Shown: positions 3,327-63,531 of the stretch, one piece after another | Numbering within the stretch: the stretch's first letter is position 1 | Layout: each line of letters opens with the position of its first letter | DNA from: Haliotis rufescens | Taxonomy: Eukaryota | DNA: 64,000 nucleotides | NCBI RefSeq assembly: GCF_023055435.1 | Contig: NW_025964371.1 | Location: forward strand, 310,001-374,000 | Direction of reading: 5' to 3' | Notes under the pieces: model-generated | What the model saw: only the letters and a program-made list of their open reading frames with translations | The model's database searches: none | Told to the model about the DNA's origin: nothing | Made by a program: the position numbers and the translations under genes

Positions 3327-3328
<2 letters not shown>

Positions 3329-5145: not shown

Positions 5146-5903
5146 CCACAGAGACACGAGATTACGATGCATTCTGATAATGATTGTCCAACACAAAACC
5201 CGGCATTTAGATACAGGTTTTGTAAGGATCGCTTGATCCACTACTTGTTTTGCCTCTTCCTCCCCCTACAACCTCCCTTTGTTCAGCTTAACTAACAGTT
5301 TTACATACATTGACCTTTGGTATGTAACCGAGTTTATGTATTCTTTCACGGTGATGATTGATAAGGTGGAATATTACCATTATTCTGGCTGTGAGATACT
5401 ACATACTTGTGATATACTAGTGCTCTGTTATGTTTGTTGTGTGGTAAAAGTGATATAGATTTTTTACTGGAGTAAAAGAACATTTTTCTGTAGAGATTAC
5501 AGCACATTAGATAAGTAGAAATTAAATCCTAGCCATGATCGCCAGCACACTGTTTCATAAAATTTAACACAACTTTGAGTATACAATTTATTGATATGTA
5601 TAATATTGACACACCTATCTAACCACTAGGTGTTGGTATAACAGTATGTCAAATAGGAAAGATGGTTCTGTGAGGGATGAAAACAGCGATGTAAGTCCAA
5701 ATTATCATCCTATTTTATTTGTCAAGTGTTTATGTTTGTTCATTTTATAATAAAACCCTTCTCTGTAGGTGCAGTATGTATATTAAGTAAGTATAAGAAT
5801 TTAAGGATCCATAAATTCTTATCCTTACTTAGTACTCTAAATGACTTTCAAAGAAGTATGTATATTAGCAAGAATATTTGGGTCAATACACGGGTGGACA
5901 ATA

Positions 5904-6225
5904 GGTGAGGTGAAATTGGGTTTAACGTCGCGTCCAAGATTATTTGACTTATATAGCGACGTGCATGCACGTGTGTGTGTGTGTGTGTGGCTGCTTGTAC
6001 TAGTCCGGACTGATGCCGATTTATTGTGCTAGCCCACTGAGATACCATGCTGCAGTGTAACATGAATACCCCACTCAGACACAGCATACTGTCTCCGATC
6101 CGACAAGTCCTTGTTTTAGTCCCTTAATGCCGAGCGCCAGACAGGATAACAACAAGTACCATCTTTAAACCCCGGACCTTCCGCTCTCCGGGCGGACGCT
6201 CTACCACTAGACCACGGAGGCGGTC
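5904..6225 (-). mobile_element. tRNA-derived SINE, family A (short internal deletion)
   Basis: Matches family A. TSD GGGT(G/A)GACAATA at 5892-5903 and 6226-6237. Confidence 0.9.
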
Positions 6226-6429
6226 GGGTAGACAATAAGCACCTCAACATGTTGATGTCGAGTGCAAAAACAATATGCGAATGTGGAGGTATATGGACTG
6301 CTGTGCGCATGCCTATGCTGTGTCCGGCTTTTGTCGTTTGTGTACTGCCATATCGCACATGACGTGTGCGAGGTGTTGGTATGTGAATGGCAGATAAGAG
6401 ATAAGAGTTATGTGGAACAAATAAAGAAA

Positions 6430-8845: not shown

Positions 8846-9198
8846 GACCGCTTCCGTGGTCTAGTGGTAGAGCGTCTGCCCGGAGAGCGGAAGGTCCGGG
8901 GTTCGATCACTGACGGCGTCATACCAAAATACGTTAAAAGATGGTACTTGTTGATACCCTGTCTGGCGCTCGGGATTGAGGGGCTAAAACAAGGACTGGT
9001 CGGCTCGGAGTCAGTATACTGTGTCTGAGTGGGGTATTCATGTTAAACTGCAGCATGGTATCTCAGTGAGCTAGAACAATAAATAGGCATCAGTCCGGAC
9101 TAGTACAAGCAGCCACACAAACACATACACGTACATGCACGTCACTATATAAGTGCAATAATCTTGGACGCGATGTTAAACCCCATTTCACCTCACCC
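8846..9198 (+). mobile_element. tRNA-derived SINE, family A
   Basis: Head GACCGCTTCCGTGGTCTAGTGGTAGAGCG, B box GGTTCGATC, tail GTTAAACCCCATTTCACCTCACC. Perfect 10-bp TSD TATAGGCTAA at 8836-8845 and 9199-9208. Confidence 0.92.
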
Positions 9199-19818: not shown

Positions 19819-20613
19819 TTTACATGACTTAAGTCAAACATACATGATTTAAGCCTAGCAAGGTGAGTCTTAATAGTTAAGTCAGAAAATGACAAAACTT
19901 AAGTCTAAGTCTTTTGATAAATATGACTTAAGTTTTTCCACTAAACTTAAGTAAAAAAACAAGAAAACTAAGTTTTTTTAACTGACTTAAGTTTTATTTA
20001 TGACTTAAGTTGTTTGATAAATACGGCCCCTGATCTTTGTGTTCGATATTGGGACTATTTAGATTCACATATGACCAAATATCTAAAGTGTACCGGTATT
20101 TAGAGTTTTACAGGACACCGTCGCATGGCAGGAGTTCTGCCATATGAACATACACTTACGTGTTCACGCAGATTGTGTGAGTGACGGGTACTACTGGTAG
20201 GGCTAGGCATACTTTCCATTGTCGCGAACCTAGTGTCATCACTGATACTCGAGACTGGTTGTTCTCTGGCGTCGACGTTATATATATTTACACAAGTTAC
20301 CGTGAAATGTGATTTTCTTTCCAAAATAGATGTGAATATCAATTTGAAAGGGAAAGACATTTCAAAGCTTGAAGTAGACAACAACGCAGTAAAACAATAT
20401 CAAGCTACCTTCGTCTGTCCTGACAATTGGATTGCTGTGTACACAGTTAAATATGTATGTCACCAAACCGTCATGCAGGTTCGGTTATAACTAGAGCCTT
20501 AAGATCACAGTAACGTTTGACAACAGTATTAACCCCGTGATGTACCTTTTTTAATCAATACAATACTACCCCGTTGTTCCTTTGCAAACAGTGGAGACGC
20601 TACGATAACAAGG

Positions 20614-26600: not shown

Positions 26601-29600
26601 AATGGTCACTTCCACACAGGTCATCATGAACTGACCAGTCAAATTCGTTCAGCAAATTGGCATCTGTAAGTAACAGATCCAATGCTGAATAAGTCCCTGT
26701 TGCAGGATGTAAGTACGAGTTTGAACCATCATTAAATATACACAAATTATTGTTTGTTATAAAATCTTCAAGGACCGTGCCCTTAGCGTTGGTATCATCA
26801 CTTCCCCACAGAGGGTTATGTCCATTTAGGTCACCCATAATGACACAGGGTTGAGGGAGTTGGTCAAATAAAGGCTGAAGATCAGCCTGCTGAAGGGGAG
26901 AAGATAGTGGAATATACAAAGAGCAAAGTGTGAAGGCGATGTGAAATGTTAGCCGGACTGCAACGGCTTGAAGATTGTTGGTAAGATGAATTTCTCTATG
27001 GATTATGTCCTGTCTCACCAAGATTGCAGAACCTCCAGTGGCTTTTGCTCCTGGAGGGGAGAAGAGATTATACATGTTATATTTCCTGACATCACATTTA
27101 TCTGTGTTCTTAAGATATGTTTCTTGTAAACACAAAGCTGATGGTTTAAAATCTTGAATTAAAAGCTGTAAATCATTAAAATTATTCCTAAATCCTCTAC
27201 AATTCCATTGAATTAAGGTGTACGATTGAGTCATGGTGGCTCAATCGGTTAACACTCACGTACACGTGAGGAGGAAGGACTCTACTCTACTACTGCTCTG
27301 TGACGATGGGGTTACATCCATGTCCAGAGCATCAAAGGAGTTCTGGACAACTATCTCTGAAGATGAGTAGTTCCTGGTTATCTGTTTTTTAGTACTTTTT
27401 TCCTTTCTTTTCTGGTCAAAGGTTGAATGTCTGGTTCTACAGCATTAGATTCTTTAGTGACAAGCACTTCAGCAGCAGACACCGTATTGTCTGGTTCAGA
27501 GAGATTCACAGTTTGGGTGGAAGATGTTTTAGAAGTTATGCTGACAGGTTGATCTGACTTAACCCAGGACAATTCTGTCTGAATAGAGATTGATGAAGTT
27601 TGTGTAACAGTACGAGCAGCAGCTGCAGAATATGTTTTATTTAGTGATGTTGGAGGAGATTTGTTCTCAACAAGTTTCTTTGCCTCTTGAAATGAAATGT
27701 TTTTTTCATGTTTGACCTTCAGAATTTGTGATTGGGTTTGCCACACAGGACATAACCTTGAAGAAGCCAGATGTTGTCCTTTACAATTTGCACATTTTAT
27801 CTCTGCATCACAATCTGTGTTCTCATGTCCACCGCCGCAACGTTGACATATTACAGAGTGGTTACAATATTTTGAGCCGTGACCAAACTTTTGGCACTTG
27901 AACCACCGGAGTGGATTAGGGACATACACCTCCACTCCAATGTTCAGATAACCAGCTTTAATAGACTTAGGAATTGTTGAAAGTGCAAAGGTAAACAGAT
28001 ATGTGTTGGGCGGGATGATGTCACCGTCTCTAGACTTCATAGTGAAACGATTTACTGCTATCACTCCTTGTGTTCTTAATTCTTCTGGGGAGGTTGGGTA
28101 GCATAGTGGTTAAAGCGTTCGCTCGCCACGCCGAAGACCCGGGTTCGATTCCCGACATGGGTACAATGTGTGAAGCCCATTACTGGTGTCCCCCACCGTG
28201 ATATTGCTGGAATATTGTTGGCATATTGCTAAAAGCGGCGTAAAACAGTACTCACTCACTCACTCACTCACTTAATTTTTCTGCCAGCCTGGTTCGGCCA
28301 ATGACAGTAAATTGGAGACAGACAGCACTCAGATATGTATGGGTGCAACCCACATTTGTGTAGCGAGCCATAGTATGATATGGACGCAACCCACACTCAT
28401 AAAGCGAGCCATAGTATGATATGGATGCAACCCACACTCGTGTAGCGAGCCATAGTATGATATGGATGCAACTCACACTCGTGTAGCGAGCCATAGTATG
28501 ATATGGATGCAACCCACACTCGTGTAGCGAGCCATAGTATGATATGGATGCAAACCACATTCGTGTAGCGAGCCATAGTATGCTATGGAAGCAACCTACA
28601 CTCGTGTAGCGAGCCATAGTATGCTATGGATGCAACCCACACTCGTGTAGCGAGCCACTGAATGATATGGATTGGAGCAACCCACGTCCGTGTGGCGAGG
28701 GGGAAACCTTTGAACACTGCATCTCAGTATTCACTTCCTGACATTACCATCGAAAAATGCGTTGGGTCATCGGGAGAAACGAGAAACTGTTACTAAGATA
28801 CTCTACTGCAGAGATGAAGTACTTAGTATCTTGTTGATCATACAGGAATAGAAACAGGGTACCCTATTCCAGTGTCATAACACAGAACATATTGTATATA
28901 ACTCATCGTTCCAAGTGAAATATTTGTAGATGCTCTAGATCGACGTGTTCGACTTCGATCACAACAGGCAGTGTTTGCATCCAAGGCACTTGGAGGATAT
29001 ACACGACATGTGTAACCTTTTTCTGTGTTTTTTTGTCTGATATAACTCTCGCCTTTTGAGCTAGCCGTCAAATCAGCCGTACAGCTGCCTATACCAATAA
29101 AGCGACAAAACCCTTTCCATATGCAATAGATATATCTGAATAAAGCAAAGGAATTGTACAATTCCGATCTTATCGTGAGCGTGTGTTTATGAATCACAAT
29201 CAAATAGTGATGATATCAGGTGATCTCAAAAGGCGAGTGTATCCTTCCCCACTGTTGGCACCTGTTACAAACACATACAAAGGCAAGTCAATTGATCACC
29301 TGAAAAAACAAACCCAAAACATGGGAAAATATGGTACAAGTCTAAATAGGGAATTGCATTGGACATCATTGTTGGCACTGATGTGTGAAATTTGGAAACG
29401 TTGTCCGCATGCCTACCATACAACTTTTGTTGTAACATGATCAAAGAAGTTCTAAGCAAGAGTCGTATGAGCTCTTTGAAATCTTGGTCGAAGAAGCATG
29501 CTCGATTGTATCTCAAAAGTTCTGTATCTTTATGCATAGATCTAAATATGAAACATATGAGGCGGTCTCACTGGTCTCCTTATTTAATTCAGACGTGTAA

Positions 29601-32600
29601 ATCAGTGGAAGGGAATTGGCTACTAGTATTTGATTGCTATTGAAGCCTAGCTGCATAATCAAATGAACTTAACAATTTATGTTTATGTAAATGTATACTA
29701 CAAAGCCACACATTACCTAGGTTCAGTTGATCAACTCATAACTGCCATCCTATCTCATCTTATCTCATCAACATTTCAACAAATCAAATGTCTTTTTTTT
29801 CTTGCAGTGGGATCTCATATGTGACCAGAATATTCTCAAGTCCATTATCACATCAGTTCAAATGGCCGGAGTGTTCTTTGGGGCACTGTTTGGCGGACAG
29901 TCTGCTGACGTCCTCGGTCGGAAGTGGACTTACTTCATCAGCCTGGTCCTTCAAAGTGGATTCAATCTGGTGGCAGCATTCTCCGTCAACTGGCAGATGT
30001 TTACAGTGTTGCGTTTTCTCATCGGGATGACGATTGGCTCTCTTCTGGTTGTAAGCTACCCGTATTTCATGGAGTTCATTGGAAGGAAATGGCGACCAAT
30101 TGCATCGGCAATGCCAGTCTGGGTAACGGGTGTATGTGTCTTTGCCCTGTCGAGCTGGTTGAGGCCTGACTGGTCTCATCAACACATCATATTGGCTGCC
30201 CTTCATCTCCCCTTCTTCGCCGGATGGTTGTAAGTATCCCGGTATCCCGAAATTAAGCCTGAGAAAGTTGGAACTCAAATTATGATTGGCGATATATAGT
30301 GATTGCCAATGTTCAAATTCAAAAAGTGTCATTTACGTTCTGCATTATTCAAAATATGTTCAACTATCTAATAGTCACCAAAGGAGATTCGGTTCCTCGT
30401 GCAAATAAACGGGATACATCTCCTCCCACATTCCACGACTCTGAATACATCCTGAATCCCTATCACAAAGTAATGACACAATGTGTTCATTTAAAGATAA
30501 AGGGATCCTGCCCTACCGGTGGCTCTCATCAAAAGCACACGCATGTGAAGTAAACATGGGGTAAAACACGAGAACATATGATACAAGTCAAAATTGGGAA
30601 TGTCATCGAACATCCTTTTCGTCACTCATGCATCAATTTCTTTTCTATATCAGTTTTCCTTCTTCATATATTTTTTTTCCATTATTATTCATCATTAGTG
30701 TTAGACTTAAAGGTTGGGTATTTTCATTTTTGGTTTTCGAAAAGGAAGGATTTCGCTCTACCATTCTCAACCATATTCGTTCAAAATAAGATCTTGAAAA
30801 TATAGCTAATGCTTTAACCAACCATTTTTTAGTTTTACTGATTTAATTCCACCGACGCTGCCAGCTTTGTCCCAGAGAGTATGCGCTGGTTGGCTGTAAA
30901 AGGGCGGACTGATGAAGCTGAGAAAGTCGTGGATCAGATGAGTCGATACAACAAAAGACAGAAGCCCACCAACACACTGCAGCTGCTGAAACAAGTGGCA
31001 GAAGAAGAGCAGAAACTGAGAGCGTCTGGCAGCAGGTACACCTACCTTGACATCTACAGGGGCTGGAGCATCTGCTGGAAGTCTCTCGTCATACAGTTCA
31101 TCTGGTGAGTACAGAAGTGGATCGGGTATGAGAGGGGGTAGATACTATTCTGTGTACCTTGGTATATGGAGATGGAGCGATGAAACGGAATACATGTGTT
31201 AAGTGAAGAAAAGATGCCAAAATTTACAAATACTTGGCATGGTGTGACACATTGTTGTACAAAATACCCAAGCGGTTCTATGTTAGACCAGTTTATTTAC
31301 AGGGGAAGGATATGGAAAAAGCCAATGAGTCGAATAATTTCGACATGCCTTGCCTATAAGCATCAAAGATGAGGGCAATTTTCCTCTCGTAAAAAGCTGA
31401 CGCTCGTAATATCACGGAAATATTGTTCACAGATGTGTTAAATTACTCAAAAATGAAGAGGAATGCCTTTCTTTCCGATTGTGATCTGCATTTTATCTCT
31501 GAAAAATCGACAAACTGGTGTCGTTTTGTTGGTGACATTTTATAAAGGAAATTACACAATAATTTGTCCTGCAGGATGTGCATGTCGCTGGTGTACTATG
31601 GGATATCGTTCGGTGCAGTGAGACTCGCAGGCAACCTGTATCTGAACATCTTCCTTCTGGCAGTGGTGGAAGTGCCAACTACTGTGTTGACTTTCTTCAC
31701 AAACAACAAGTAATCTCATCTCTAGGTGTATTTGTTCGCATGTTATTTAACCGCATATTCAGTATTATTCCAGGCAATGCTCTGCACATCGATCCTGGCC
31801 CGGATGATTCAGTGACTGATATTATGGACAATGGTCCACACTGTTGGGTGCGAAGACACCCTCTTAACCAAGTCAAGGAGACTGACCAGCCGATCCATGA
31901 GTCGCTTTGTTGTTGGCAATGTGTTCTAAAGCTCACTCGAGGCCATGGGTAGCCAAGTCTTCTAAGGCACTGCCAATCGCTGTGCAGAGTTGCGTCCCCT
32001 GGGCACGCCAGAAACCTATGATCGTGGGTTCGAATCCCGTTTTGCTCTGGATATATTCTGGGTTTGTCAGCACCACCTCCGTGCTGATGGGTTTCACCGA
32101 AGTGATAAACGTCTGAGACCTGCATCACTGCAGGCTTTCCTTCTACATCAAGCTGACACGCCGTGATATAACTTGAATAGTGTTCAAAGAAGTATTAAAC
32201 CCAACTCACTCACTCACTCCGGCTTCCAACGGGTATCATCACAAGATAAAACTGTTTCTCCCAATGTTGTGTGAATAGGAGATCAGCGGGTACTTTTTAT
32301 TGTTTTTATAAATCGTTGGCCTGGTCTCAAGACAATAGCATTGACACATGTTGTGGCATTAGAATTAAATTCAGCTCGTGGACAAGGCCGCTTGAAATCA
32401 CAGGTTAATTTTCTTAAGCCAATACGTAGGGTAAAGAAGGTCAAAATGTGTTACTCGTGTCCTACTTGTATGTCTGAAAAAAACATCGACAACACCCTGG
32501 TACTGTTGGATTCATAAAGTAAAAAATAACAATTTTGTTTTCTCATGTTACTCAAATGCAACTCCAGGTGTAAATACCTTTGTTATCAATCGACTGTCTG

Positions 32601-35256: not shown

Positions 35257-38200
35257 CCAGTTTGACTTGAATAAATTAAGCCAGGCGTTGAAGCCTGGGG
35301 AGATTTATTCGTGTGTGTATCTGTTGATGGCAAAATACATCTTGTTTTAGGGTTAAAACTTGAACTTTTCATGATTCAGCGATGACAAAAATGTGTGAAA
35401 CCGACTTGATCTTTGCCACGTGTTTGGTCATCACAGTGCTTAACAAGACGATGTGACACAAACCAGAGATTTATAAAAAATCCTTGTGCGTTAACAGTGC
35501 CAGTATCGTGATACGGGTTAAAGCCATTACTTGATGTCCTTTGCAAATCGCCAACCGTTTTCAGAGCATTTATCCTGGAAGACATGCATTGTCAGAACAA
35601 TCTGTTTCTTGGGGTATTGGCATATATCATTAACGTGCATGTTCAGAGACATAGTATCTTCAGAACGACCAGACTGAAGTCCCATCTTTTGTGCTTAACG
35701 CAGCTGAAATAGTCAGAATCGTACAATTTACTCTTCTTTCAGCAGAGATATCTTATGAATATGGAAAGAGTCTTGTCGCTTTTATTTGATATCATTGATA
35801 TCGGGGGAGGGGGTCATTGGTCCCCAGCTGCAGCATCTTATGTTTGTCGCTTATGGGTTCGATGCCTATCTTGATTGTACTTGTCATCGTACGTCAAGGG
35901 TGTGTGTCGTTTCCCGCAATATTAAACATCTGGTTTTTTTCATAATTCGCATCGGTGACATGTTAGCCAGGTATCATTGGTGTGTTGTCTCTGTGATATC
36001 GATTGATGGACAACCACAAGAAACATGAATAAGTACATATGAGCCAGATACTGTAAACATGAGATAAACATTTGCATGTTAGGGACCGACCGTTTGATAT
36101 TCCGGAATGAGCCTCGAATTTCAGTGAAAAAATACATTGTCCCAAGAAAATGCTTTAATAAAATATTCATGCTTCAGACTGTTGAAAGAAAATAAGATAA
36201 TCTGTCACAAAAAGACCATTGTTGCAAAGTGTTTATATTTAGGCTCATAGTTATAATTAGAAACACAGTATCTGGTTATGCAAATGTAGCTGAAAAAAAA
36301 TACCTACATGTAATCTCCATTCAAATCAGATAAGGGTTCTTGATAATGCTTATACTAGTATATATGAAGTTTGAGCCACATAACACCCATAACATCAGCT
36401 GAACGATCTAACCTAAATAGAACCGTTTTGACACACACTGTTGTGTTACATTCAAAGCTATGTATGTGAGCCCTTTGAGACAGGGAAGGGAGTGACAGAG
36501 AAGAACGCTGTTGACAAGGCACGCTGACCTTCTCACACACCACAGCAGGTCTGACAACAGGTAGGTGAAAGTTGAGAGGGTAACTATAAGCTGATATTAC
36601 GGAGTATGTTTTTACAGTTTGTGTCATGACATTAGAGGGATAGTGATAGAGATAGGGATTGTCCAACACGAAAACCATGGATTTAGATTCAGCTGTTGTT
36701 CTGATCGCTTGATCCAAGGCTTATCGTTGGTTGGTTCTTATTGGGGACTTGTGTTTTGAACCGGCCCCTACATAATAAAAGGCCTGCCGCTTCTTTCATT
36801 ATTGCAAAACTTCCATAACCAGCCCGACGCTTAATAAAGGACATACGGTTTACACAAAGGCTAAATAAATGCGATCATGATCTTTGTATTTCATGTTGGT
36901 GCTATTTAGACGCACATATTACCATTAATGTAAACTGTACCGTATTTAGTTAGACGTAATATCAATTCTTATTTTGATAGAATTTTACAGGCCGCTGGTT
37001 GGAGTTCTTCTGTGTCGCCTCTGACGCATATTTCTTCACGCACATTGAGTGAACGGCGGATGCTACCGCCAGGGCGAAAATGCTTACCCTTTTCGCGAAC
37101 ACCTGGTGTCAAATAGTTTCCTCAGCTATTTTGCCTTTTAAGACCGAATATTTTTCGACGGTTATTCGAGACTGGTTGATCTCTGGTGCAGACGTTTATA
37201 TTTACACAAATGACTGTGCACACAGTTATAAATCAATGCCATAAATACGTCAGGCATGTACAGTTGTATATTAATCCCTAAGTAAAGTTTGCCATGGAGA
37301 ATATTACAAGTGTGAATTCTGCATTCCTAAAACTTATTTGTCCTAATAAGGGACGTCAAAGTTTAATATGAAAGGGAAAGACATTTTAAGGCGTGAGGTA
37401 CACAACAATGCTGAAAACCAATGTCAAACTACCTTCGGCTGTCTCGACAATTGGATTGTTGTGTCCACAGTGAAATATTTATGTAATCAAAACCTCAGGC
37501 ATGTTCAGTTATATATAGATCCTTCAGATCACAGTTACGTTTGCCATCTCTCAGCATTATGATTGATATTATTAGCAACGCCCCACACAGCCCTTGTACG
37601 ATGACATGACAAATCAACTGAGTCACAGAGTATGATGACCAAATGATTACGACCTCTTTTCTGACAAGTTTGTGGATTTAACCAAATGGTAAATGTCTGA
37701 GACCAGCATCACTTCGGTCTTTCCTCCAACTTAAAGCTGACACACCATGATATAACAAAGATACTGTTGAAACGGCGTCCATTCACAGTTTCGACAAGCA
37801 TGGGTGGACTAGGGGCCTTCTCTTATCCGGCATCTGGGAATGACTGTCGCTCGTTCCGATTGCATAGAATGGTATTTTAAAATTGGTATTTAATGTGTTT
37901 TGTATGAAAACGCATGAAGTATGCTCTATTGCTATCACTGGTTTTTCTCGTCCATACTCGATTATTTAAAGACTGGCGTGTTTGAACCTGGAGTGGAGTG
38001 CGACCTTAAACTAACAGATATGCAATGATTTCTTCTTTCAGTGGGGTTTCATTTGTAACCGCAAAATGCTCAATCCTCTCGTCACATCAGTACAAATGGG
38101 TGGAGTCTTTGTTGGGGCATTGCTTGGCGGACAGTCTGCTGACGTCCTCGGTCGGAAGTGGACTAACTTCGTCTGTCTGGTCCTTCAAAGTGGGTTCAAA

Positions 38201-38771
38201 CTGGTGGCAGCGTTCTCCGTCAACTGGCAGATGTTTACAGTGTTGCGTTTATTCATCGGAATGATGATTGGCTCTCTTCTGGTTGTAAGCTACCCGTACC
38301 TCCTTGAGTTCGTTGGAAGAAAATTTCGACCACTTGCATCGGCAATTCCAGTCTGGCTAACAGGTGTATGTGCATTTGCCCTGTCGAGCTGGTTGAGGCC
38401 TGACTGGTCTCATCAACACATCATATTGACTGCCCTTCATCTGCGCTTCTTCACGGGATGGTTGTTAGTATCTCAAATCGAGAGTGAGAAATTGTCAGAG
38501 CCTCCATCCAACCCACGAAAGGTTGACTGCTAAGCCTTTCATGAAATGTTTCATCATTATTATCCAAATATGTCAACATGATAGTCCTACACTATAAAAC
38601 AAATGAATTTTTGCATGAGCTTACACTTTTTGAACTGACTATGCTACCTTCAGGACATACCAATATAGTCCGATCATTTAAAGCCACATTCAGCAAAATA
38701 CCACCTATATGACAATGGCCAGTAAATGATGACAACTAGGCTACACAAAGCAGTTCTTGAGCAGTCCGTTT

Positions 38772-42100: not shown

Positions 42101-44368
42101 ATTAACGAAAACCATATTCATTAAACTTGAGTGTTGTGAAAATTTTAAAATATTTTTCAGGGCGTGACTGTCGCTTGTGTTTATGGGATATCGTTCGGTG
42201 CACTTGTATCTGAACGTCTTCCTTCTGGCAGTGGTGGAAGTGCCAACTACTGTGTTGTCTTTCTTCACAAACAACAAGTAATCTCATCTACAGGTTTATT
42301 TGTTTCCATGTTATTTAACGCCATATTCAGTTTATTCCAGCTATATGGCCGGTACATCGATCCTGGCCCAGATTACTCAGTGACTGATATTATGGAACTT
42401 GGTCCACACGGTCGGGTGCGAAGACTTCCTGTTAACCAAGTTAAGGAGCCTGACCACCCGATCCATGAGTCGCTTTGTCAAACAAACACAAATTGTTGGC
42501 AATGTATTCTGAACCTGACTCGTAGCAACGGGTTTCCAGTCGTGTAAGGCACAACAATTCGCTGTGCAGAGTTGCGTCCCCTGGGCACGCCAGAACCCTA
42601 TGATCATGGGTTCGAATCCCGTTTCGCCCTGGATATTTTTCGTTGTTTGTCAGCACCCTCTCTGTGTTTGTGGGTTTCAGTAAATTGTAAACGTATGAGA
42701 CATGCATCAATTCAGACTTTCCTTCAACATCAAGCTGACACGCCGTGATATAACTGGAATACTGTTCAAAGTGGTGTTAAACCCGACTCTCTCACACACC
42801 TAAATCTAAATTCCCATGGGTATCATCACAAGATAAAACTGTTTCTTGATCACTCATCAACCTTGATGCTTATGTTTTTTTAGATTTGGTAGAAAATGGA
42901 CAGCTGCTGGTATATTTGCTGTAGCCTCTTCCGCAGATTTTGGTGTTGCAATTTTTTCGAAAACAGGTGTTGATTTGTAACGGTAAAGTTCAGCTATCAT
43001 ACAGCCCTTGATAATTGCCAAAATTGTGATAATGTATTTTCAATGTTTTGTTTACATTTTCTACAGAAATTTGGGTTACAGAGCAGCTAATACGGCAGCC
43101 CGAGTTAGCGGCATGATCGCTCCATACATATTTGCAGGGGTATGTCCATTGTTCAATGAAGTCCTTTGAACCACTTCCGTGAGGCTATTTACTGACTAAG
43201 ACGTCGGACATTCTTATCAACTATAACCTCCTTCGTACAGAAGGGGCAAAAAACGCAATTCGTTGTGCAGAGTTGTGTTCCTTGGACACGCCAGGAACTT
43301 AAGATCCTAGGTTTGAAACATGGTTTGCCCCTATTATTTTTCTAGGTTCGTCAACTTGTGGTAAACGACTCAGACCTGCATCACCTCGGGGTTTCCTCCT
43401 ACATTAAGCGTTGTCATATAACTGGAATACTGTTGTAAGCAGAAGTCACTCTTCCGAGTCTAGTTATGAAAGTGACATTTTGTTTTGCGTAAGATCTAGT
43501 AGTTCTATTTATATGGTGTTGATGAACTGAAATGACAATTGGTATTCAGGCTTTTTTAATTTGGAATGATATGAATGATACTCAGCTCCGTCACCAGGTG
43601 ACTGTCATTCCATTTTGACATAGGAAAAAGGCTGTTGAGGGGTAAAACCAACACTTGAACGTTGCATGATTCAGTGATGGCGAAAATGGGCGAAACCTAC
43701 TTGAATGAAAGCATCTCTGTGTGTGTCATGGTTCTGTGTCAGCAATGTTCTTGACAATGTTTAATGTTCACTGACTAATAATTCAGCTCTTACATACCCC
43801 ACTCACCACGTGCTCCTACAGCTGTGCCTTCTCCTGCTTCTGATCACACTGACCAATCATCTGTACTCTCTACTAATCCCTTACATGGTAGTGCTCCTCC
43901 ATCTTGGCCCGTGGCACCGGGTGATCACAGTGCTGCACAAGACGATGTGACACACACAGGGAATTTATTAAGATTAATGATGCCAGCATCGTGTTACGGG
44001 TTATAGCCATTACTTGATGTCCTTTGCAAATCGCAAAGTGCAAAAGAGGGCATTTTTCCTGGAAGACATGCATTGTCTGTAAACTGAATTACGTGAAATG
44101 AAATGTTATTGTTCGCATGATTGAACATTATTAAAGCTGTAGCATGGCAAAAAGTAGCCAGAACAACCTGTTTCTTGCGGTGCATGCACATATCTGACAT
44201 TTTGTATTTCCTCAACTATACAATGACTATGACGTGTACACAGTTTGTACGCTACCATAATTTAGGAATATAATAGGGTGCATTCGATATTGATCAATGT
44301 TGCTTGTACACATTATCAAATGCACTTCAATCAAACTAAGTAGGTAGGACTGTAATATACTGTAAATA

Positions 44369-46331
44369 TACTGTGCTGCAAAAGAAACGTCACCCCAAGT
44401 AACATTGCATGAAAAGTTGTCATTTAGATAGCCGGGCATTTTTTGTCCAAGTTTCTAAAATTTAACATTTCCTTGTCCGGAAACATGAAATTTCATGTTA
44501 GAAAACAAAGTACGCATCACGGCAACGGCCATGGTAACCAGATGTACGTGAGTTCCGTTGAAATGCACATGCATTCCCCCATTTCTTGCCCTTATAAAAA
44601 TCCACCCAGATCGGATAACATTTATTCGTTATTGAATTGCTACCACATGCCAAGACTGACAAGAAATCAGCGACACCAAGCCCTTGGACTATTGCAAGCT
44701 GGACAAACCACCCGGCAAGTAGCCAATGCATTTCAAGTCCACGTAAGGACCATATAAAGGCTCCAGCAACGGTACCAGACCACCAGCACTACAGATGACC
44801 GACCACGTAGTGGAAGACCAAGGGTAATCACGCGACGTCAGGATCGTCAGATTGTGCGACAGCATCTTCAAGATCGCTTTGTTACTGCTGCAAAACCACT
44901 CGACAGACCATGGGGACATACCAGCGACACATTAGTGCGGACACCGTAAGTCGACGATTGACGAGCAGACACCTCCACTGTCACAGGCCACACCGAGGAC
45001 CCATTCTGACACAACGTCATCGCCGGGACCGTCTTCAGTGGGCATCACAGCACCAGCATTGACGCCACCAGCAGTGGGGAAGAGTCCTCTTCTCAGACGA
45101 GTATCTCAACAGCAGATGGCAGAGAGAGAGAGAGTCTGGCGAAGCCGTGGGGAACGTTATTCGGATGCTTGTGTCGTTGAGAGAGACTCGTGGGCTGATC
45201 CGAGCATCATTGTGTGGGGTGGAATTGGTCTTGGACAGAGGGTCGGCTCTGTGGTCTTCCAGAACATCGGTCTAGGGAGAGGCAATGGTGTCACAGCAGC
45301 TCAGTACATTGATCAAGTCTTGAGACCACACACCATACCTCATCTGGCACGTCGCCGCAACCACGAGTTTCAGCATGATAACGCCCGTGCCCACACTGTG
45401 AGATCAACAAGAGACTTTCTCTTGCAGAATGGCATCAGAACCATGCAGTGGCCTGCCCTCAGCGCCGATTTAAATCCCATTGAGCACCTGTGGGACGAGA
45501 TTCAAAGACGGTTGAATGACCTCCGACCAAGGCCGACAACTGCAGCTGAACTGCGCAAGGCGTTCCTCAGAGTGTCGGCTCATGTGCCTCTGGCCTTCAT
45601 CAACAGCCTCATCCATTCCGTGTATCGACGTTGCACGGCAGTCATCAGTGCACATAAAATCATTGTCCCCCCGAAAGAGTACGTAAGTTCCACATCATTC
45701 AAAGTACATTTGGGTTTACCCCATTTTTAATCGTAGAATATTTGTTATTTTTAATTGATAGCTACAGTTGACTATACTCGCCAGTGGCTGAAGGCATGGT
45801 GTAAATCCTGCTGGGAAGCCGTGAAGGAAGCAGAAGTATTGTAAGTCCCCACGGTCCCTAGTATGGTGGCCTACCTTTGGATGCTGGCGATCTCAAGCTC
45901 GTTTTTATCATGTATTGTTATGTATCGTAATATCATTTTATCGTCCCATACTTGTTTTAAATATGTCTGTGACACTTTAGTTATTTTACTGTCCTTTGCT
46001 GTAAGGTATTTTAGAAAGTTTACACATATTTCGTATGTATGTTTAAATTGTTGTAGTCACGATGTGGCTGAAATACTGCCGATGTGACTGTAAATCTTAA
46101 CTCACTCACTCACTCATCGGTGCACATGGCGGACACACGAGAAACTGATTTGTGACGCCATTTTCTCAGAGATTAGTTAAGTGTTTAACTTTAAGAACAT
46201 CACACACTTTAATTTCAACCTTGATGATCAGTTTCATCTTTTTAATATGTCTCAAAGTATGTTTACAGTGTTTGGACAAATAAGGTTTCTAATGTATCTA
46301 TCCATGGTGACGTTTCTTTTGCGGTCAAGTA
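44369..46331 (+). mobile_element. Tc1-family DNA transposon (disrupted transposase 44647-46148)
   Basis: TIR TACTGTGCTGCAAAAGAAACGTCACC / GGTGACGTTTCTTTTGCGGTCAAGTA with TA TSD. MPRLTRNQRHQALGLL, RPRSGRPR, IIVWGGI, FQHDNARAH, WPALSADLNPIEHLWD, GGHTRN*. Confidence 0.93.
45656..46113 (+). mobile_element. 5'-truncated I/Nimb-type LINE 3'UTR inserted into the Tc1 transposase
   Basis: 14-bp TSD TCATC(A/G)GTGCACAT at 45642-45655 and 46114-46127. (ACTC)n tail. Its 5' part is homologous to the 3'UTR of the LINE at about 21870-22010. Confidence 0.88.
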
Positions 46332-46904: not shown

Positions 46905-48964
46905 GTGAGTAATATTTGTTTTTATTGCTTCGAAAATACTGCAAAATTGTTTCTGAATTCCCAAAACGTATTTGACCTAATAATGCACGTAAAGGTTTTA
47001 CAACACCATTAACCTCGTGCTGCGCCTTTTTCAATCAACACATGACTACCCCGTTGTTCCTTTGCAAACAGTGTAGACGCTACGGTGACAAGGATGCACA
47101 CGGACGACATCATCGAGGCCGTCGGGGGCATGTCCCGCTTCCAGATTCTCATGGTTGTCTTCATATTCGGTCCAAAGATGTTGGTGGCGTGGGGGATGTT
47201 GATGATGTCGTTTGCGGTGGTGTGTCCCGGCAACAGCGCCCTCTGTTGATGAGACCTCTGACATGAACAACGTCACATTCAAATTTTGTCCCACCTCGGA
47301 CAACATAACCTGTCAGGTTGTGTACAGCCAGGATAAAAACACTGTCGTCAGCGAGGTAGGTAACCATAATTCAGTCCCTTTTAATTTACTTATTGCAACC
47401 GTGTAACATCTAAGGCGTGGGAGCAACCCACACTTGTGTACCCCGCACCTTGTTGCCACAGGAATGAGTAGTCTGTGTGTCCTAACGCCCCATGACGACC
47501 TATATCTGAGATCACTGCATCTCCGTAATCACTTCCTGACGTCACCATTTGAAAATGTGTTGGGTCATCGGGTGAGCCGACAAACCGTTACCATGAGACT
47601 CTTGTGAAGAGTTGAAGTACGGCCCCGTCTTTTCGTCTTGTTTATCGTATCATTGTTTTGTACCATTGGTTATCATACCAAATATAAACAGCCTGATATA
47701 ACTGTTACATTTTGAGTGATGACATTCATATCTTATGGCCGCCAATTTAGTTCTAATGCGTACACCCGTCCATACTCAGCCTAGCAACATAATCAAATGA
47801 ACTTTACACCATCTGTTTATGTAAATGTATACCACAAAGATACACATGACAACGAAATAGGTGCTTGTACCTTGGTACAGTTGAACAACTAAAAACTGCC
47901 ATATTATCCTCATTACAAATTACAACAATTCCAAATTATCTCTTGCAGTGGGATCTCACATGTGACCAGAATATTATATCAAGAACATTATCACATCAGT
48001 GCAAATGGCCGGAGTGTTTTTCGGGGCATTGACAGGCGGACAGGCTTCTGATGTCCTCGGTCGGAAGCGGACTTACTTCGTCTGTCTGGTCCTACATGGT
48101 GGGTTCAACCTGATGGCAGCGTTCTCCGTCAACTGGCAGATGTTTACAGCGTTGCGTTTTCTCATCGGGATGATGATTGGCTCTCTGACGGTGGTAAACT
48201 ACCCGTATTTCATTGAGTTCGTAGGAAGAAAATGGCGACCAATTGCCTCATCATTGCCTGTCTTTGGAACAGGTGTATGTGCATTTGCCCTGTCCAGCTG
48301 GTTGAGGCCTGACTGGTCTCGTCAACACATCATAGCGGCTGCCCTTCATCTGCCCTTCTTTTCGGGTTGGTTGTAAGTATCCCAAAATTAAGCCTGAGAA
48401 ATTCAAAGAATAACATTTACATAGTGATTGCCAATATTTAAATTCTTAAAGTTTCTCTTAGGTCTTGCAACATAAATATTGATAATATAGTAAAGGCAAT
48501 TATCTAATGGTTACCAACAGAGATTCAGTCCCTTGTGCAAATAAAAGTGACAAAACTCCTCCCATATACATATGATATCTCTGCAAAAAGCAAAGTCCGT
48601 TGCACAAACTCGGAATACTTCATGAACATGCGTATATTAATCACTATCAAACAGGGAAGACACCAGATGTTTGCACTACAGGTGGCACTCGTTACAAACA
48701 CATGCAAGGCAAGACAACACAGGGAAAACACTAGAATATATGGCACAAGTCAATGCCACCAAATTGCACCACAGCAGCATCTTGAAAACGTTTACAGCGC
48801 CGCCAGTAAACAGGCCTATGTTTTATTTACGGAAAATTATATTATTGTGACCAAGCAATGACACAACAAAATAAAGTTCACAAAACTTTAATGCAAAAAA
48901 TATAACAAGTTTGTTGTAACAATTTACATGGAAATAGTCTAAGCCATTGGCATACCCAGGACTA

Positions 48965-56545: not shown

Positions 56546-58555
56546 TTTCCATATCAAGCAATGGCGAAGCAAAGGTTATAGCATATGTTCATCTGAAATA
56601 ATTGGTCTTTGATTCTTTGAACCTCGATGACTGAATATGACGAAATAAGAAATGTATTCTTATTTATTATTCTCCCATTACAAGGCTTACAGTTGTTTTT
56701 TTTCATGTTGTTATATTATGAGTCTTGTTTTCATGAAGATAAAAAGAAGAAAATGTTAATGTTAAATTACCTATTATCAGTAAGTCTTAACTTCTAATCC
56801 GATGAAATAAGAAAAGAATAAAGTTTGGAGGTAACTGTTGCAGTAAAACAACAATGTAACATAACAAGGGTATTAAAATGCAAATATCTGTAGAACTATT
56901 GAAATGATAATTTATTGTTTACATATATCCTATGTATTTATGTTTCACACACAATAAACTATTGTGCTTGTCAAATTCACATAGTTTCTGGTCATTCACA
57001 AATATGGGGAAATTAGATAACTCATTTAGTAACATTTTTGGTGTCATGATGTTAAATATCATGTTCAAAAGAAAAAATGTCCACTGAATAAGTTGTTTTT
57101 ATATATAATAAAAACACATGTGCTCACCATGTTCAGGAACAACAAAAAAGATGACATGAAATAATCATCATTTTACATATTAAATTATTCACCGTAAAAT
57201 TAGTTTTAAAGAGGAAAATTCGTTCAAAAATATTACAATCCTTTGATGGATGTGAGAAGAATTACCTTGCAGTAACCCCGATCAGTCCTGCTGACAGTTC
57301 CTTGTTTTTTGTTAACAATAGTTCACAATATTTAAGACAATATTTAATTCTCTCCTAATTGGGTTTATAACATTTGTTTCTAGCGGACAAATAAACGAAT
57401 AACGTATTTACATACACTAAACATGTGGGCCTATTTAGTGTTGCGCATTGAGAATGATAGTCACGGCGAGACAAATGCAAATAAAGTTATTGGCCGAGTA
57501 ATCCAAAACCATTAACAAATATCAATTCACATTACTCATTCTCAAAACGTTACTTCCATCAGCTTTTAATAGTTTACAAAAAAACAAACCCAAAAACATG
57601 AATGCTAACATGTGGCTTGCCTGTCACGGAAAACTCGTGTGGGTTGTCTTTTTACCTGTTTATGGTGCAGTTGTCTCACTGAGCATATTCGAAAACGAGG
57701 CTGGAGGAACTCCCGAGTGGTTTCTAAACACGGGAAATCTTCAACTACGAGCTCGACTTTTTATGGCGTATTGTTATGGGAGAAAAAGGATTAACCACTG
57801 TGTTCAGTTGTTACCGAAAAATCTACACACGAGTGATTAATCTGTCACGATTAGAACGAGGCTTTGCCAACATTTCACGTGTTTATAAACCCGTGGGGTA
57901 TTCCGGGTAAGAATATAGGTCTCCAACAATCTATTCTTATGGAAAGAGGTGACGAAATGGATCGGGTAGTCAGGCACGGTGACTTGATTTGTTTATTGTC
58001 ATTGTATTCCATTTGCTAGGAGCGATGCTCATGATGTCAGCCACTGGACCGGACTGTCGGGCCTGGAAATCGAGGAGCAAAAGAAACTGATCCCCTCAGT
58101 TTATTTAAACGTGAATTTGATTCTTAATTTAACATATCTAAAGTTTGCTATGTTGTATCCGAAACTAGAACTGTACTGTTGCTTAGTCAACACTCAAAGA
58201 ATACTTTCGCACGGTTTTATTTTTCCACATGATTTAACACCTTTATATTTAAAAAAGAACACAGTCGCATAATACACAACTGCTAATGGGTATCTTTTTT
58301 CTTTCACATTTGCGTTTTTTCGGCACACATTTACAACATTTCTCCCTGATATTACCGAACTAAAAATATATTTTAAGCCTATATCATACGCACAAATATG
58401 TCTCATACAACAAATATGAATAGGATCAATTCATGACCTTCTGGTCTTCATGCCACAACCTCTTTGCATAACCAGACTGTATTGACAAACGTGCCTGTCC
58501 AACTGTATTTCATATGTATCACAATAGATTAACTTCAAATACTCACATGGACAAG

Positions 58556-58839
58556 GGGGCACGGGTGGCCCAGTCGTCTAAGGCGCCGCGATTCGCTGTG
58601 CATGGTTGCGTCCCTTGGGCACGCCAGAAACCTATGATTGTGGGTTCGAATCCCGGTTCGCCCCGATTATGTTTCTAGTTTGTCAGCACCATACCCGTGC
58701 TCGTGGGTTTCACCGAAGGGGTAAACGTCTGAGACCTGCATCACTTTGGGCTTTCCTCCCACATTAAGCTGACACGCAGTGATATAACTGGAATACTGTT
58801 AAAAGCGACGTTAAACCCAACTCACTCACTCACTCACTC
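58556..58839 (+). mobile_element. tRNA-derived SINE, family C (best-preserved copy)
   Basis: A box TGGCCCAGTCGTCTAAGG, distant B box GGTTCGAATCCC, tail GATATAACTGGAATACTGTTAAAAGCGACGTTAAACCCA(ACTC)5. Confidence 0.88.
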
Positions 58840-59123
58840 AAGGTTCAACAAGCATGTGTACTAGGTGGCGATACTGTTCATATAAATCCACTGCTACTTG
58901 CCTATATTCAGGCTGAAATGTTCCTCACAGCACGTGGTAATTAGTCATACTTTCGCGTCCAAGGACAGGGTTTCGTACAACAATGATTTATGTGCATAAT
59001 TTCGAATTCAGCTATTCACGGTGAATTGACTGCAGTAAAAAGGCAAACACGCCAGTTTCAATCAATAACTTTTATATATAACAACAATGGAAACTAACAA
59101 ATATATCATATTTTGCAAGAGTC

Positions 59124-62100
59124 CTATGGTTCACTTTCTTGTTGGTTGATGATTTCAACTTCATTTGGGTTCAGCGCATCCGCAGTGTCGTGACAAGTCC
59201 TTCTTGAATGCCTGAAGGTTGTGGACAGCAGGCCACAGAGAGCGCAAGAGAAGAACATCACACCTGATGGAACGAGAGCAGACAATTATAATTATGACAC
59301 CATGTGTAAATAAATAATTAATTGATAATGATTATAATGATGATGAAGAAGATGATGATGATGATGATGATGAAGATGATGATAGTATCCAGGCCAACAA
59401 ACCTGATCTTGTTCTTTATGATAAATCCAATGAAATCATTTATATCATTGAATTTTCTGTCCCCGTTGACACTAATGTGATTGACAAGATTGAGGAAAAA
59501 CATGGCAAATATGCGGACCTCGCTTTTGAAATCACGCTTGCATCCCAAGTACCAAGTTGTTCGACTCCCCATTGTTCTGACTGACATCGGGGGTGTACCC
59601 GGGTTTGCTACTAGGACTACAGACCTTCTGACAATCTGGGTAATGCAGAAGGCTGCAGTGTTGGGGAGTCTCCCTCTGTGCTGCTTGTAGAGGGAGCAAG
59701 GGCCCCGAGCTGATGATGAGCCTAACCAGCCTGACTGTGCCAGGATCAACCAAACCCTCTTTACTGCATTTTTTATTTTAATCTGTAAAAAGGCGATTGA
59801 CATTATTTTTGCCCCTGTCATTCTCAGCTCCCTGGAGAGTATACAGCCCAAGCTGCATGTGAGGAGATAGAAGGGCTGGTTGAACGGAGGCATATCTTCA
59901 ACTAAATCGACGCTTCTGTGGTCTTGTGGTAGAGCGTCGCCCGGAGATCTGAAGGTCAGACGTTCGATCACCGACCGCATCGTACCAGAAGATGGTACTT
60001 GTTGTTACCATGTCTTGCGCTCGACATTAAGGGGCTAAAACAAGGACTGGTCGGCTCGGAGTATAGTGTGTTTGAGTGGGGTATCCATGTTAAACTGCGG
60101 CATGGTATCTCAGTGTGCTAGCTCTGTAAATCGGCGTCACGTTCGACTACGTTCATCGCCTTTTACTTACTGTTCAATATGACATGGGGGAATAGGGATC
60201 GAAATATTTAAAATTGTGTGATCATGTGAGATTAAGGACTGACTGACTTTATTTTACGGAAAAGGAACTTTGATAAAATAACGTCACGGGCTTTGGAAAG
60301 CAAAATGGCGGACCCTTCGCAACCGGTGCCTGGTCTTTGTCTTTTGGAGCTGGAATCCAGCATATGGTTTGGAGGAATTCGGTTGCACTTTAGCAACATC
60401 ATGTGTTCCGTTGCACAAGATGAAGATGCAACCAATGCTGTCCGTAAGAGGCAACTAAATAGATCGGGTGGCCAGGCACCGTGACCTCAGACCCTGATTC
60501 TAAGACGGTATGTAAATTCCACATCATTCGAAGTATTTTTATGCATGCCGGACTTTTAAAACGTAGTAGTTTTGTCATTTTCATCTTTGGCTTAACTGGT
60601 AAACTATCGCTAGTGACTGAAGGGATGATATAAATCCTGCCGGGGTCAATGCAAGAATCAAAGACACTGTACGCCCCCATGGTCCCTAGTGTGGTGATCG
60701 GGGCGGTAGGGTAGCCCAGTGGTTAAAGCGTTCGCTCGTCACGCCGAAGACCCGGGTTCGATTCCTGACATGGGTACAAAGTGTGAAGCCCATTTCTGGT
60801 GTCCCCCGTCGTGATATTGCTTGAATATTGCTAAAAGCGGCGTAAAACAATACTCACTCACTCACTAAATATATATGCTATATAGGGGCGGTCGGGTAGC
60901 CTAGTGGTTAAAGCGTTCGCTCGTCACGCCGAAGACCCGGGTTCGATTCCTGACATGGGTACAATGTGTGAAGCCCATTTCTGGTGTCCCCCGTCGTGAC
61001 ATTGCTGGAATATTGCTAAAAGCGGCGTAAAACCATACTCATTCACTCACTAAATATGCTATATAGGGGCGGTCGGGTAGCCTAGTGGTTAAAGCGTTCG
61101 CTCGTCACGCCGAAGACCAGGGTTCGATTCCTGACATGGGTACAATGTGTCAAGCCCATTTCTGGTGTTCCCCGTCGTGACATTGCTGGCATATTGCTAA
61201 AAGCGGCGTAAAACAATACTCACTCACTCAATATATATGCTATATAGGGGCGGTCGGGTAGCCTAGTGGTTACATCGTTCGCTCGTCACGCCGAAGACCA
61301 GGGTTCGATTCCTGACATGGGTACAATGTGTGAAGCCCATTTCTGGTGTCCCCCGTCGTGATATTGCTGGCATATTGCTAAAAGCGGCGTAAAACCATAC
61401 TCACTCACTAAATATGCTATATAGGGGCGGTTGGGTAGCCTAGTGGTTAAAGCGTTCGCTCGTCACGCCGAAGACCCTGGTTCGATTCCCGACATGGGTA
61501 CAATGTGTGAAGCCCATTTCTGGTGTCGCCCGTCGTGATCTTGCTGGCATATTGCTAAAAGCGGCGTAAAACCATACTCACTCACTCACTCATTATATAT
61601 GCTATATAGGGGCGGTCGGGTAGCCTAGTGGTTAAAGCGTTCGCTCGTCACGCCGAAGACCCGGGTTCGATTCCCGACATGGGTACAATGTGTGAAGCCC
61701 ATTTCTGGTGTCGCCCGTTGTGATCTTGCTGGCATATTGCTAAAAGCGGCGTAAAACCATACTCTCTTACTAGTATGGTGATCTCCCTTTAGTTACTGAA
61801 GATCTCTAGCCCATTCTTATATTGTGTTGTTAAATCTTTCTGCTTTTACATGTTCCTCAACTGGTATTAAATCGACTCTGTGCTATTCTTGTTATTGTAC
61901 TGCCCTTTTTTATGACAGGTGTTTATTAAGTCTACATATATGTGTTATTAATTTTTTACTTCTCTTCACGATTTGGTTGAAATATTGCCGGTGTGACGTT
62001 AAATATTAACTCACTCACTCGCTCATACACTGACGCTTGGGACATTTCTCATAATATCAATCACTGATTTGTCTTGTACAGATTCCAATATTTATAGACC

Positions 62101-63531
62101 GTCGGCATATAGCTGAGATATTGTTTGTTTGTTGTTTAAAGACGCACATATGGACCAGACAATCCAGAGATTGACATCATGAACATCAACCACAAATGGA
62201 CATTTTGACCAGTCAACTCCTTGTCATTACATGCTATGTGGCTTTTATGTTAAGAATCTTACAATCAATACAATATATCATTGGTGCGGAATATGAGTAT
62301 ATCACGCTTGAGATATGCTTATGGTTTCTCAATGGGTGCTTAAAGTTTACACCTATTGATGATGGTGGCTAAAATGAACTAAAAACAAGAAGTGGTTATT
62401 CGTTTCAATACCCGTATCAGAGTTATGTTTTGAAATGTTTTACACAAAAAAACGAGGTTCGCAGCACATTCTCAAAACACATGCTATGTGGCTTTTATGT
62501 TGAGAATCTTTCTCACGCTTGAGAAATGTTTTTGGTTTCTCAATGGGTGCTTAAAGTTTACATCTATGTTTGATGGTGGCTAAAATGAACTAAAAACAAG
62601 AAGTGGTTATTCGATGGTGGTGTTTCAATACAGGAACAGTAAACTACGTTTATAACGAACACGCTTATAACGAACTGTCGGATATAACGAACTTACTTTT
62701 TTGTCCCGACAACTTGCTGTAGTTATGCTGTATATATGCTTATAACGAACTACGGTTATAACGAACTAAAATTAGTGGCCCTTTTGAGTTTGTTATAACC
62801 GTAGTTTACTGTATCAGAGTTATGTTTTGAAACTTTATTTTGCTGCTGTTTTCAGCCTCATGACGTTTGTAATTTCTTTGTCCAATCCAATTCTCAAGTG
62901 CCAACTTTCTTTTTCCAGGCAGTTTAGTTTATATTGTACACTGATGTTGACCATTACTTGCGAAATAAATGTCAAAACGTCAATGCCTGTCATGTATGCG
63001 AGAAGATAATGATAATGTAGAATACCATGTTTGAATATTAAAAAAAATACATACTATGTTCCTTGATTCAAATCGACATCCGTCCCAAAACATTGCAGTC
63101 AAATACGCCCATGCCACTTATCTTCTACGCTGACATCAAAGAGTTCACGTTAAGTTTAATGAGTAGAAAGGAAATAAATATAATGTACGTGAGATCCCCT
63201 ATACATCAAGGCTGTAAACTGTACAGGTAACATGACTCTACATTGTAAGGACAATATGTTTATTGCCTTGTTTACTCGTTGGCTGAATTTATTTCCACAC
63301 ATCACTTAAGTTCATTTAAAATATACCTTGTAGGCAGGAATGATTTCGATCTATTACTATATCAGAAAAGTTATAAAACGGGCCTTAGAGAAATTAACGT
63401 GATTCGAAATAGTGAAATAAAAAGGTGTAATGCCCCAATAAACGGGCACCTGTGTGGATTAGCTACGCTATACAACGTACCTGCGAATATGTAGACGCCA
63501 TAATAGACCTTGGCTATTTGGAAGACATATC
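59124..63531 (-). CDS. Last two coding exons of an MFS transporter, SLC16/monocarboxylate-transporter-like (5' part outside the window)
   Basis: Exon 63531-63481 (TTGCAG|...|GTACGT; G-YVFQIAKVYYGVYIFA-G) splices in phase 1 to exon 59263-59124 (CCATCAG|; VMFFSCALCGLLSTTF...ESEP*). This resembles the MCT GxLxDxxxxYxxxFxFAG/TM12 end. Confidence 0.65.
59312..59383. repeat. (TAA/TGA/GAT)n trinucleotide microsatellite
   Basis: Seen directly. Confidence 0.9.
59381..59760 (+). mobile_element. R4/Dong-like non-LTR retrotransposon 3' fragment (restriction-like endonuclease domain)
   Basis: IQANKPDLVLYDKSNEIIYIIEFSVPVDTNVIDKIEEKHGKYADLAFEI-(frameshift)-RLHPKYQVVRLPIVL...MQKAAVLGS, a PD-(D/E)xK RLE pattern. 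Confidence 0.75.
59906..60150 (+). mobile_element. SINE family A, 3'-truncated
   Basis: GTGGTCTTGTGGTAGAGCGTC...GATGGTACTTGTTGTTACC...AAGGACTGGTCGGCTCGGAGT. Confidence 0.82.
60490..62022 (+). mobile_element. I/Nimb-type LINE 3'UTR fragment hosting the SINE array
   Basis: 60490-60699 and 61784-62022 together align with 45656-46113. Ends GAAATATTGCCGGTGTGACGTTAAATATTAACTCACTCACTC. Confidence 0.75.
60700..61769 (+). repeat. Head-to-tail hexamer of SINE family B
   Basis: Units start at 60700, 60885, 61066, 61247, 61424 and 61609, joined by (A/T)nATATGCTATATA. Outer TSD CTAGT(G/A)TGGTGATC at 60686-60699 and 61770-61783. Confidence 0.95.
62228..62835. repeat. Local tandem duplication of about 200 bp
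   Basis: 62228-62435 and 62480-62835 share ACATGCTATGTGGCTTTTATGTT...GATGGTGGCTAAAATGAACTAAAAACAAGAAGTGG...TATCAGAGTTATGTTTTGAAA. Confidence 0.85.
62637..62811. mobile_element. Tc1/pogo-type MITE
   Basis: TIR CAGTAAACTACG(T/G)TTATAAC with internal TTATAACGAAC repeats, followed by TA. Absent from the duplicate copy at about 62412. Confidence 0.85.

Follow-up and report, generated by a model that had tools for sequence, protein, structure and literature searches.

Genes and repeats of the locus

We analyzed a window of 64 kb, by which we mean the whole stretch of DNA under study. Exons of paralogous genes of the MFS/sugar-transporter family were found at 20533-20934, 29742-30230, 38015-38530, and 47013-48373 (by Pfam for one of them and by tblastn), and these form a tandem gene cluster. 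No MFS-type exons were found beyond 48.4 kb with the tblastn queries used. A broken LINE occupies 21870-28330 on the minus strand, with endonuclease, reverse transcriptase (RT), and RNase H frames identified by Pfam and an ORF1-like Cys/His-rich frame at 27381-28109. Arrays of a 41-bp minisatellite stand on both sides of this LINE (20949-21855 and 28334-28672), as if it had landed in a minisatellite. Inside the LINE, 23633-24968 and 24967-26302 form a 1336-bp tandem duplication with 99.5% identity, and in each copy there is a 5'-truncated LINE-type 3' end, 260 bp in length, that carries an ACTC tail. The duplication would be either a very recent event or an assembly artefact.

The main subject of this study lies at 60700-61769, where a single insertion footprint encloses six full-length tRNA-derived SINE units in head-to-tail order. 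All units are on the plus strand: unit 1 at 60700-60866, unit 2 at 60885-61051, unit 3 at 61066-61228, unit 4 at 61247-61409, unit 5 at 61424-61590, and unit 6 at 61609-61769. Tandem Repeats Finder (TRF) describes the array as 5.9 copies of period 181 with 94% matches. Unit 1, composed of a tRNA-like head, a body, and an ACTC tail, is the most divergent, with four private changes. All six heads begin at the first base of the SINE. The 5' end of the array is the same first base as in a solo copy elsewhere in the window, with no spacer ahead of it, and the 3' end is the tail of unit 6, with no spacer behind it. The initial annotation had described six full units with A and B boxes and (ACTC)n tails. 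The six units and the boxes stand, as A-box and B-box motifs were found at identical offsets in six out of six units, with one private change in the A box of unit 1. The tail of unit 6, however, is short and degenerate, with two changes within two ACTC repeats (8 nt).

The Rfam tRNA model (RF00005) matched five of the six heads at E<=1, with one match above the gathering score and a best score of 30.1 bits. In the Rfam alignment, the anticodon position is occupied by GUC, by which the head would be Asp-like. A cluster of real tRNA genes was ruled out by the SINE body, the tail, and the target-site duplication (TSD), together with a count of zero tRNA genes from ARAGORN. A retrozyme was also ruled out: no ribozyme family of Rfam matched at E<=1, and the hammerhead core motif expected in the monomer of a non-LTR retrozyme is absent on both strands.

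The longest run of T on the sense strand of the array is three, and the first T4 is located at 61844. The annotated lack of a Pol III terminator was thus confirmed, but it is not peculiar to the array, because the solo SINE at 28087 also has no T4. With their boxes and without a T4, the SINE units are predicted templates of Pol III.

The SINE family and its putative LINE partner

The solo copy of the array SINE lies at 28087-28270 on the plus strand, flanked by a 12-bp TSD (28075-28086 and 28271-28282) that has one mismatch and also starts with CT. It is located at the upstream end of the ORF1-like frame 27381-28109, in the opposite orientation. In this copy, an 11-nt internal duplication at 28197-28229 brings together GGAAT and GGCAT, the two alleles of a site at which array units 1-2 differ from units 3-6, so this variant may be a polymorphism of the whole family.

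The SINE family is plainly huge. In the short-read contigs of four runs, summed depth reached 7.6-28 million on the SINE against 30-68 on the single-copy flank, contig depth being no measure of copy number. Between 88,000 and 128,000 contigs per run matched the 480-nt stretch 60453-60932, with nearly all of the depth on the SINE part. Two traits by which tRNA-derived SINEs are recognized, a tRNA-like head bearing the A box and the B box and dispersed, TSD-flanked copies in high number, are both seen here. Short motifs of the family had no matches in the searchable text of the literature supplements, which gave neither a name for it nor a link to the MetaSINE/MESC superfamily, the mark of which is a central Meta domain. 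Similar tails in the accessible part of PMC4758252 give a lead that the SINE is mollusc-like.

The ACTC tail and a 3' motif are common to the SINE and the LINE-type 3' ends of the window. When the 3' core of the SINE was aligned with these LINE-type 3' ends, 0, 12, and 32 of 1000 shuffles reached the alignment scores, the last of which is a weak match. The related LINE at 22.1-27.2 kb carries endonuclease, RT, and RNase H domains according to Pfam. This suggests an I-group LINE as a candidate partner of the SINE. Nimb partners have been reported for mollusc SINEs in the accessible text of PMC11481361.

One target-site duplication and an empty site

A 14-bp TSD brackets the array, with its left copy at 60686-60699 and its right copy at 61770-61783, both on the plus strand. 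The first two bases (CT) of the right copy also continue the tail repeat. At a threshold of at most one mismatch, the 14-mer was found only at 60686 and 61770. The two copies differ at 1 of 14 positions (95% CI 0.2-34%), where the left copy carries a derived G and A is found both in the right copy and in a paralogous site at 45858.

The array was inserted into an older repeat (60508-62028, plus strand). The part of this host element to the left of the array (60508-60699) matches 45679-45868 at 70%, and the part to the right (61770-62028), which ends in its own ACTC tail, matches 45858-46117, 24465-24209, and 25799-25543 at 70%. No insertion interrupts the paralogue at 45679-46117, to which both flanks of the array align gap-free. 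This paralogue contains the target 14-mer once, at 45858-45871 on the plus strand (12 of 14 positions identical to the right TSD copy), and is colinear with the locus on both sides of it. The TSD is therefore real, as the initial annotation had proposed for a single 14-bp duplication around the whole array, and what was added to the site amounts exactly to the 1070-nt array and a single duplication of 14 bp. The 45679 paralogue also matches the sequence that directly follows the ORF2 stop of the LINE at 22113. The host element resembles this part of the LINE, which lies at about 22.1-28.3 kb, and is likely a LINE 3' end. Downstream of the host element, at 62229-62613 and 62748-62806, we observed a direct repeat with a spacing of about 211-250 bp and 93-97% identity, and a 59-bp near-palindrome.

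The spacers between the units

Five spacers join the six units, all on the plus strand. Their lengths alternate between a long form of 18 nt (spacer 1 at 60867-60884, spacer 3 at 61229-61246, and spacer 5 at 61591-61608) and a short form of 14 nt (spacer 2 at 61052-61065 and spacer 4 at 61410-61423). The linker that had been described as constant is thus constant only in its last 12 nt. Within the 64 kb window, this 12-nt end is present at the five junctions of the array and nowhere else. In the 300 nt next to each end of the array, or in the 45858 paralogue, the best match to the spacer was 10 of 15 positions. Because the uninterrupted paralogue is colinear with both flanks of the array and has no spacer, the spacer is foreign to the insertion site, and the earlier observation that it is absent from this site and from beside the solo copy holds.

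The short spacer is 14 nt long (16 nt if the overlapping CT is included), and the two TSDs that were measured for this family are 12 and 14 nt long and both start with CT. The spacer may therefore be the relic TSD of a donor tandem, a reading that draws on length and on two TSD measurements, with three of the five spacers being 18 nt long. The spacer ends in TATATA and does not contain a T run. Its reading as a TATA promoter was ruled out by position: a TATA promoter is expected about 30 nt upstream, and the spacer directly adjoins the first base of the unit.

Variation among the units

The bodies of the units differ from each other at 3-10 of 153 sites, with a mean of 4.8%. The site of 60809 is T in each of the six units, and C makes up 86-87% of the family contig depth in four out of four runs. 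The T allele common to the array units corresponds to at most about 14% of the family contig depth, and the chance of six T by independent draws would be about 5e-5, unless all were drawn from one subfamily. A single founder for the six units is likely.

Adjacent units differ on average at 5.6 sites and non-adjacent units at 8.2, and only 4 of the 720 possible unit orders do as well. Six out of seven informative sites are contiguous along the unit order (16 of 720 orders). Five pairs of sites failed the four-gamete test and are hence recombinant, and the spacer length and one site follow a two-unit period. All of the neighbour-shared variants named in the initial annotation are present, but one further variant is common to units 1 and 3, which are not adjacent. 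Unit 1 also has the allele of units 1-4. The neighbour order and the recombinant site pairs mean that the units exchanged sequence while in tandem. The five incompatible site pairs do not fit a single tree of the six units. The wide confidence interval of the TSD mismatch implies that all of the divergence between units may postdate the insertion. Today's number of units need not equal the number inserted, and between two and six units could have been inserted.

These patterns bear on the proposal that new copies were repeatedly inserted at the spacer, with a duplication of the spacer at every insertion. TSD-separated tandems that arose by double insertion have been described in Drosophila (accessible text of 10.1101/158386), and the spacer is of TSD length. 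However, the empty site has no spacer, so a seed from elsewhere would still be required, and the six units share a minority allele and are ordered by neighbour in their variants. The shared allele and the order test speak against this third model of the initial annotation, and we regard it as very unlikely.

Short-read contigs across the left junction

We compared the contigs of four of the 24 listed runs (three from organism A and one from organism B) over 60453-60932, which includes the left flank, unit 1, one spacer, and 48 nt of unit 2. An X1 contig was found to be identical to 60624-60726 with 0 differences, including the variant of the left TSD copy and two bases private to unit 1. This supports the left junction of the array, with the contig reaching only 27 nt into the SINE, which is under the 31-nt bridging rule, and with the run being a possible source of the assembly.

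The contigs allowed us to weigh the explanation that misassembly of a high-copy repeat produced the array. The window has the 1336-bp duplication that may itself be an artefact, and among the 32 of 343,150 contig pieces listed, none crossed the spacer with 31 nt to each side of it. By contrast, the substitutions between the units are shared in a structured way, and the exact short-read match at the left junction includes unit-1-private bases. We consider an artefact to be barely probable.

At the middle of the spacer (60877), contig depth was 1249, 3220, 3588, and 2933 in the four runs, which is 42-56 times the flank depth and 0.014-0.019% of the body depth. Chance extension from SINE heads predicts a depth of 99-361 at this position for exact matches and of 1888-6846 if one mismatch is allowed. 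As the observed depth is within this range, it is explained without dispersed multimers, and spacer junctions are capped at a few dozen, or about 0.02% of the family depth. A large multimer subfamily is unlikely, while a few copies are compatible with the depth. Two X6 contigs enter the spacer, one ending at 60879 and one lacking 3 nt at 60877, and either may be due to chance. A 4-nt deletion that would mark the short spacer form did not appear among the rows listed, which carries no weight. Many tail-to-head joints were found among those listed (for example 25, 20, 36, and 42 contigs in one class). We did not accept these joints as tight dimers, as the letters between tail and head may be ordinary DNA separating two copies. 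Pattern scans of metagenome contigs, for the exact junction and for any tail-to-head junction, of viral contigs, and of prokaryote genomes had no hits, and as this animal is absent from those collections, the negatives carry no information. Neither an empty-site allele nor a donor was found for 60453-60932 among the contig pieces listed (32 of 343,150 pieces, 15 of 687 joints, and 24 of 1548 loose ends, with some uncounted).

Origin of the array

We favour, with moderate confidence, the explanation that a Pol III read-through multimer of at least two units was retroposed here from a donor tandem and then turned over in place. Retroposition of a multimer is favoured because the array has a clean start and a clean end without outer spacers, one verified TSD, and a foreign spacer. 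Briefly, a monomer at the donor locus would first have become a tandem of the form TSD-(SINE-TSD)n, with the donor TSD at every junction as the spacer. Transcription by Pol III would then have begun with a unit's first base and continued through the downstream units and spacers, which, as observed, have no T4 terminator. A LINE with endonuclease, RT, and RNase H, whose 3' motif and ACTC tail match those of the SINE, would have primed at the tail of a downstream unit. The expected product is SINE-(spacer-SINE)n between new 14-bp TSD copies, and such a footprint is seen at the locus. Lastly, unequal crossing-over or conversion would have set the number of units at six; the exchange itself is recorded in the units, and its place would be here rather than at the donor.

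Within this explanation, we assign about a third of the probability to the arrival of six units at once and two thirds to that of a shorter multimer. The first model of the initial annotation, a multimer retroposed as one unit, fits the anatomy in that a multimer arrived, but its six-at-once form is less favoured than the second model, a retroposed dimer that then expanded locally, or a hybrid of the two. The latter are preferred on account of the neighbour-ordered and recombinant variants and the confidence interval of the TSD mismatch.

A DNA-level route was also considered, in which a resident monomer made the TSD, a break in it was repaired by copying the tail-spacer-head junction from another tandem locus, and the resulting dimer expanded locally, all without a multimeric RNA. 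Ectopic conversion and synthesis-dependent annealing are mechanisms by which such a junction may be copied. Neither this route nor the spacer as a relic TSD had been raised in the initial annotation. Conversion of a monomer accounts equally well for the ends without spacers, for a spacer foreign to the site, and for the presence of only one TSD, and the very high contig depth of the family is in its favour. The edge parts of the array are also the most divergent (the private changes of unit 1 and the two changes in 8 nt of the unit 6 tail), and the TSD copies are already mismatched. Divergent edges, however, are also expected for the edge units of any array, and unit 1 carries both the array-wide minority allele and the allele of units 1-4, which would leave little of it to the resident copy. 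We regard this route as unlikely, although it is the main rival.

RT template jumping is known in vitro. At this locus, the RT of a LINE could have reached the 5' end of one SINE RNA and switched there to the 3' end of a second SINE RNA with the spacer as its trailer, either once, followed by local expansion, or five times. Such jumps would give full-length units, a spacer at the junctions only, and one TSD, and template switching has been invoked for SINE chimeras (accessible text of PMC4824008 and PMC4758252). On the other hand, the trailer of a Pol III transcript is expected to finish with a run of U, which the end of the spacer does not provide, and five independent jumps would not give variants ordered by neighbour. 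Template jumping is, in our judgement, quite improbable.

The retroposed multimer that we prefer could be taken one step further, with the tandem array acting as a retrotransposon in its own right. In that case, ~1 kb read-through transcripts of Pol III, with up to six promoter-bearing units, would be mobilized whole and seed further arrays, and the donor TSD would travel with them as a lineage barcode. We consider this whole reading, the barcode included, rather doubtful. The mobile concatemer or satellite seed that had been suggested earlier is unsupported so far, with no second locus seen in the 64 kb window or among the contigs listed for the four runs. If true, a self-spreading array would let satellite seeds spread by way of RNA, and it would have been caught midway between monomeric SINE families and multimeric ones.

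Comparison with known SINE multimers

SINE multimers are already known, and the architecture described here is a variant of them. The comparisons below refer to the accessible parts of the cited papers. In Scapharca broughtonii, arrays of one SINE family in direct orientation have 4-15 units and TSDs, and unequal recombination was proposed for them (PMC11481361). Bivalve arrays take the forms TSD1-(SINE-TSD1)n and TSD1-(SINE)n-TSD1, both with truncated units, and target-site triplication of Alu is cited in the same paper (PMC11481361). The array studied here differs from the first form in that its spacer is unlike the outer TSD (at most 10 of 15 positions, and the empty site has no spacer) and from the second, whose internal units are cut at both head and tail and have no spacer, in that its units are full length from the first base and spacers are present. 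The Dip, B2, and Ves multimers also consist of full-length SINE units joined head to tail, up to eight in jerboa, while a repeated spacer or a single bracketing TSD is not described for them in the accessible text (PMC8466645).

In the dimeric and trimeric SINEs Alu, Urop, and Tu II/III, linker-joined multimers retropose as a unit between one TSD (PMC13023118). Those are fixed families of up to 10^5-10^6 copies, whereas the present array is known from one locus, its junctions make up at most about 0.02% of the family depth, and promoter boxes are kept in all six units. Like a multimeric SINE family, the array has one TSD that brackets the multimer; it works like a nascent multimeric SINE, with the status of a family only a candidate one. 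Squamate sSats are tandem repeats derived from SINEs as well, with at least four units that are always shorter than the SINE (PMC10702118), and differ from the whole SINEs and foreign spacer found here. In the transposable-element tandems made by double insertion, a TSD-length spacer at the junction records the birthplace of the dimer, as may be the case here. The spacer of a double insertion maps to its own locus and that of the array does not, which is a sign of relocation (10.1101/158386 for the former, in its accessible text).

The combination of full-length units, a foreign TSD-sized spacer, and one outer TSD was not found in the literature searched, which included few subscription papers and accessible parts of others; a precedent could stand in Fig. 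5 of PMC11481361 or Table S6 of PMC8466645. The array is a single locus without a shown function, and its importance is modest. Multimers of SINEs joined head to tail are common, but whether such a multimer originated in place or moved whole is usually left open; B2 dimers, for example, were set aside by the authors as tail insertion and retroposition of a dimeric template were indistinguishable (PMC8466645, accessible text). A spacer unlike the verified outer TSD separates the birthplace of the junction from its present location. A genome-wide comparison of junction spacers with the TSDs of their own locus and of other loci would measure how frequently tandems relocate, and this rate bears on the origin of dimeric SINE families and of SINE-derived satellites.

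Other SINE families in the window

A second tRNA-like SINE family was observed at 31944-32222, 42530-42810, and 58555-58840. It has another head and body together with a similar 3' end and an ACTC tail, and by sequence it likely uses the same LINE partner. In addition, a third SINE-like family was identified with at least four copies of 77-82% identity, located at 59907-60139, 8849-9092, 1357-1605, and 6011-6222.
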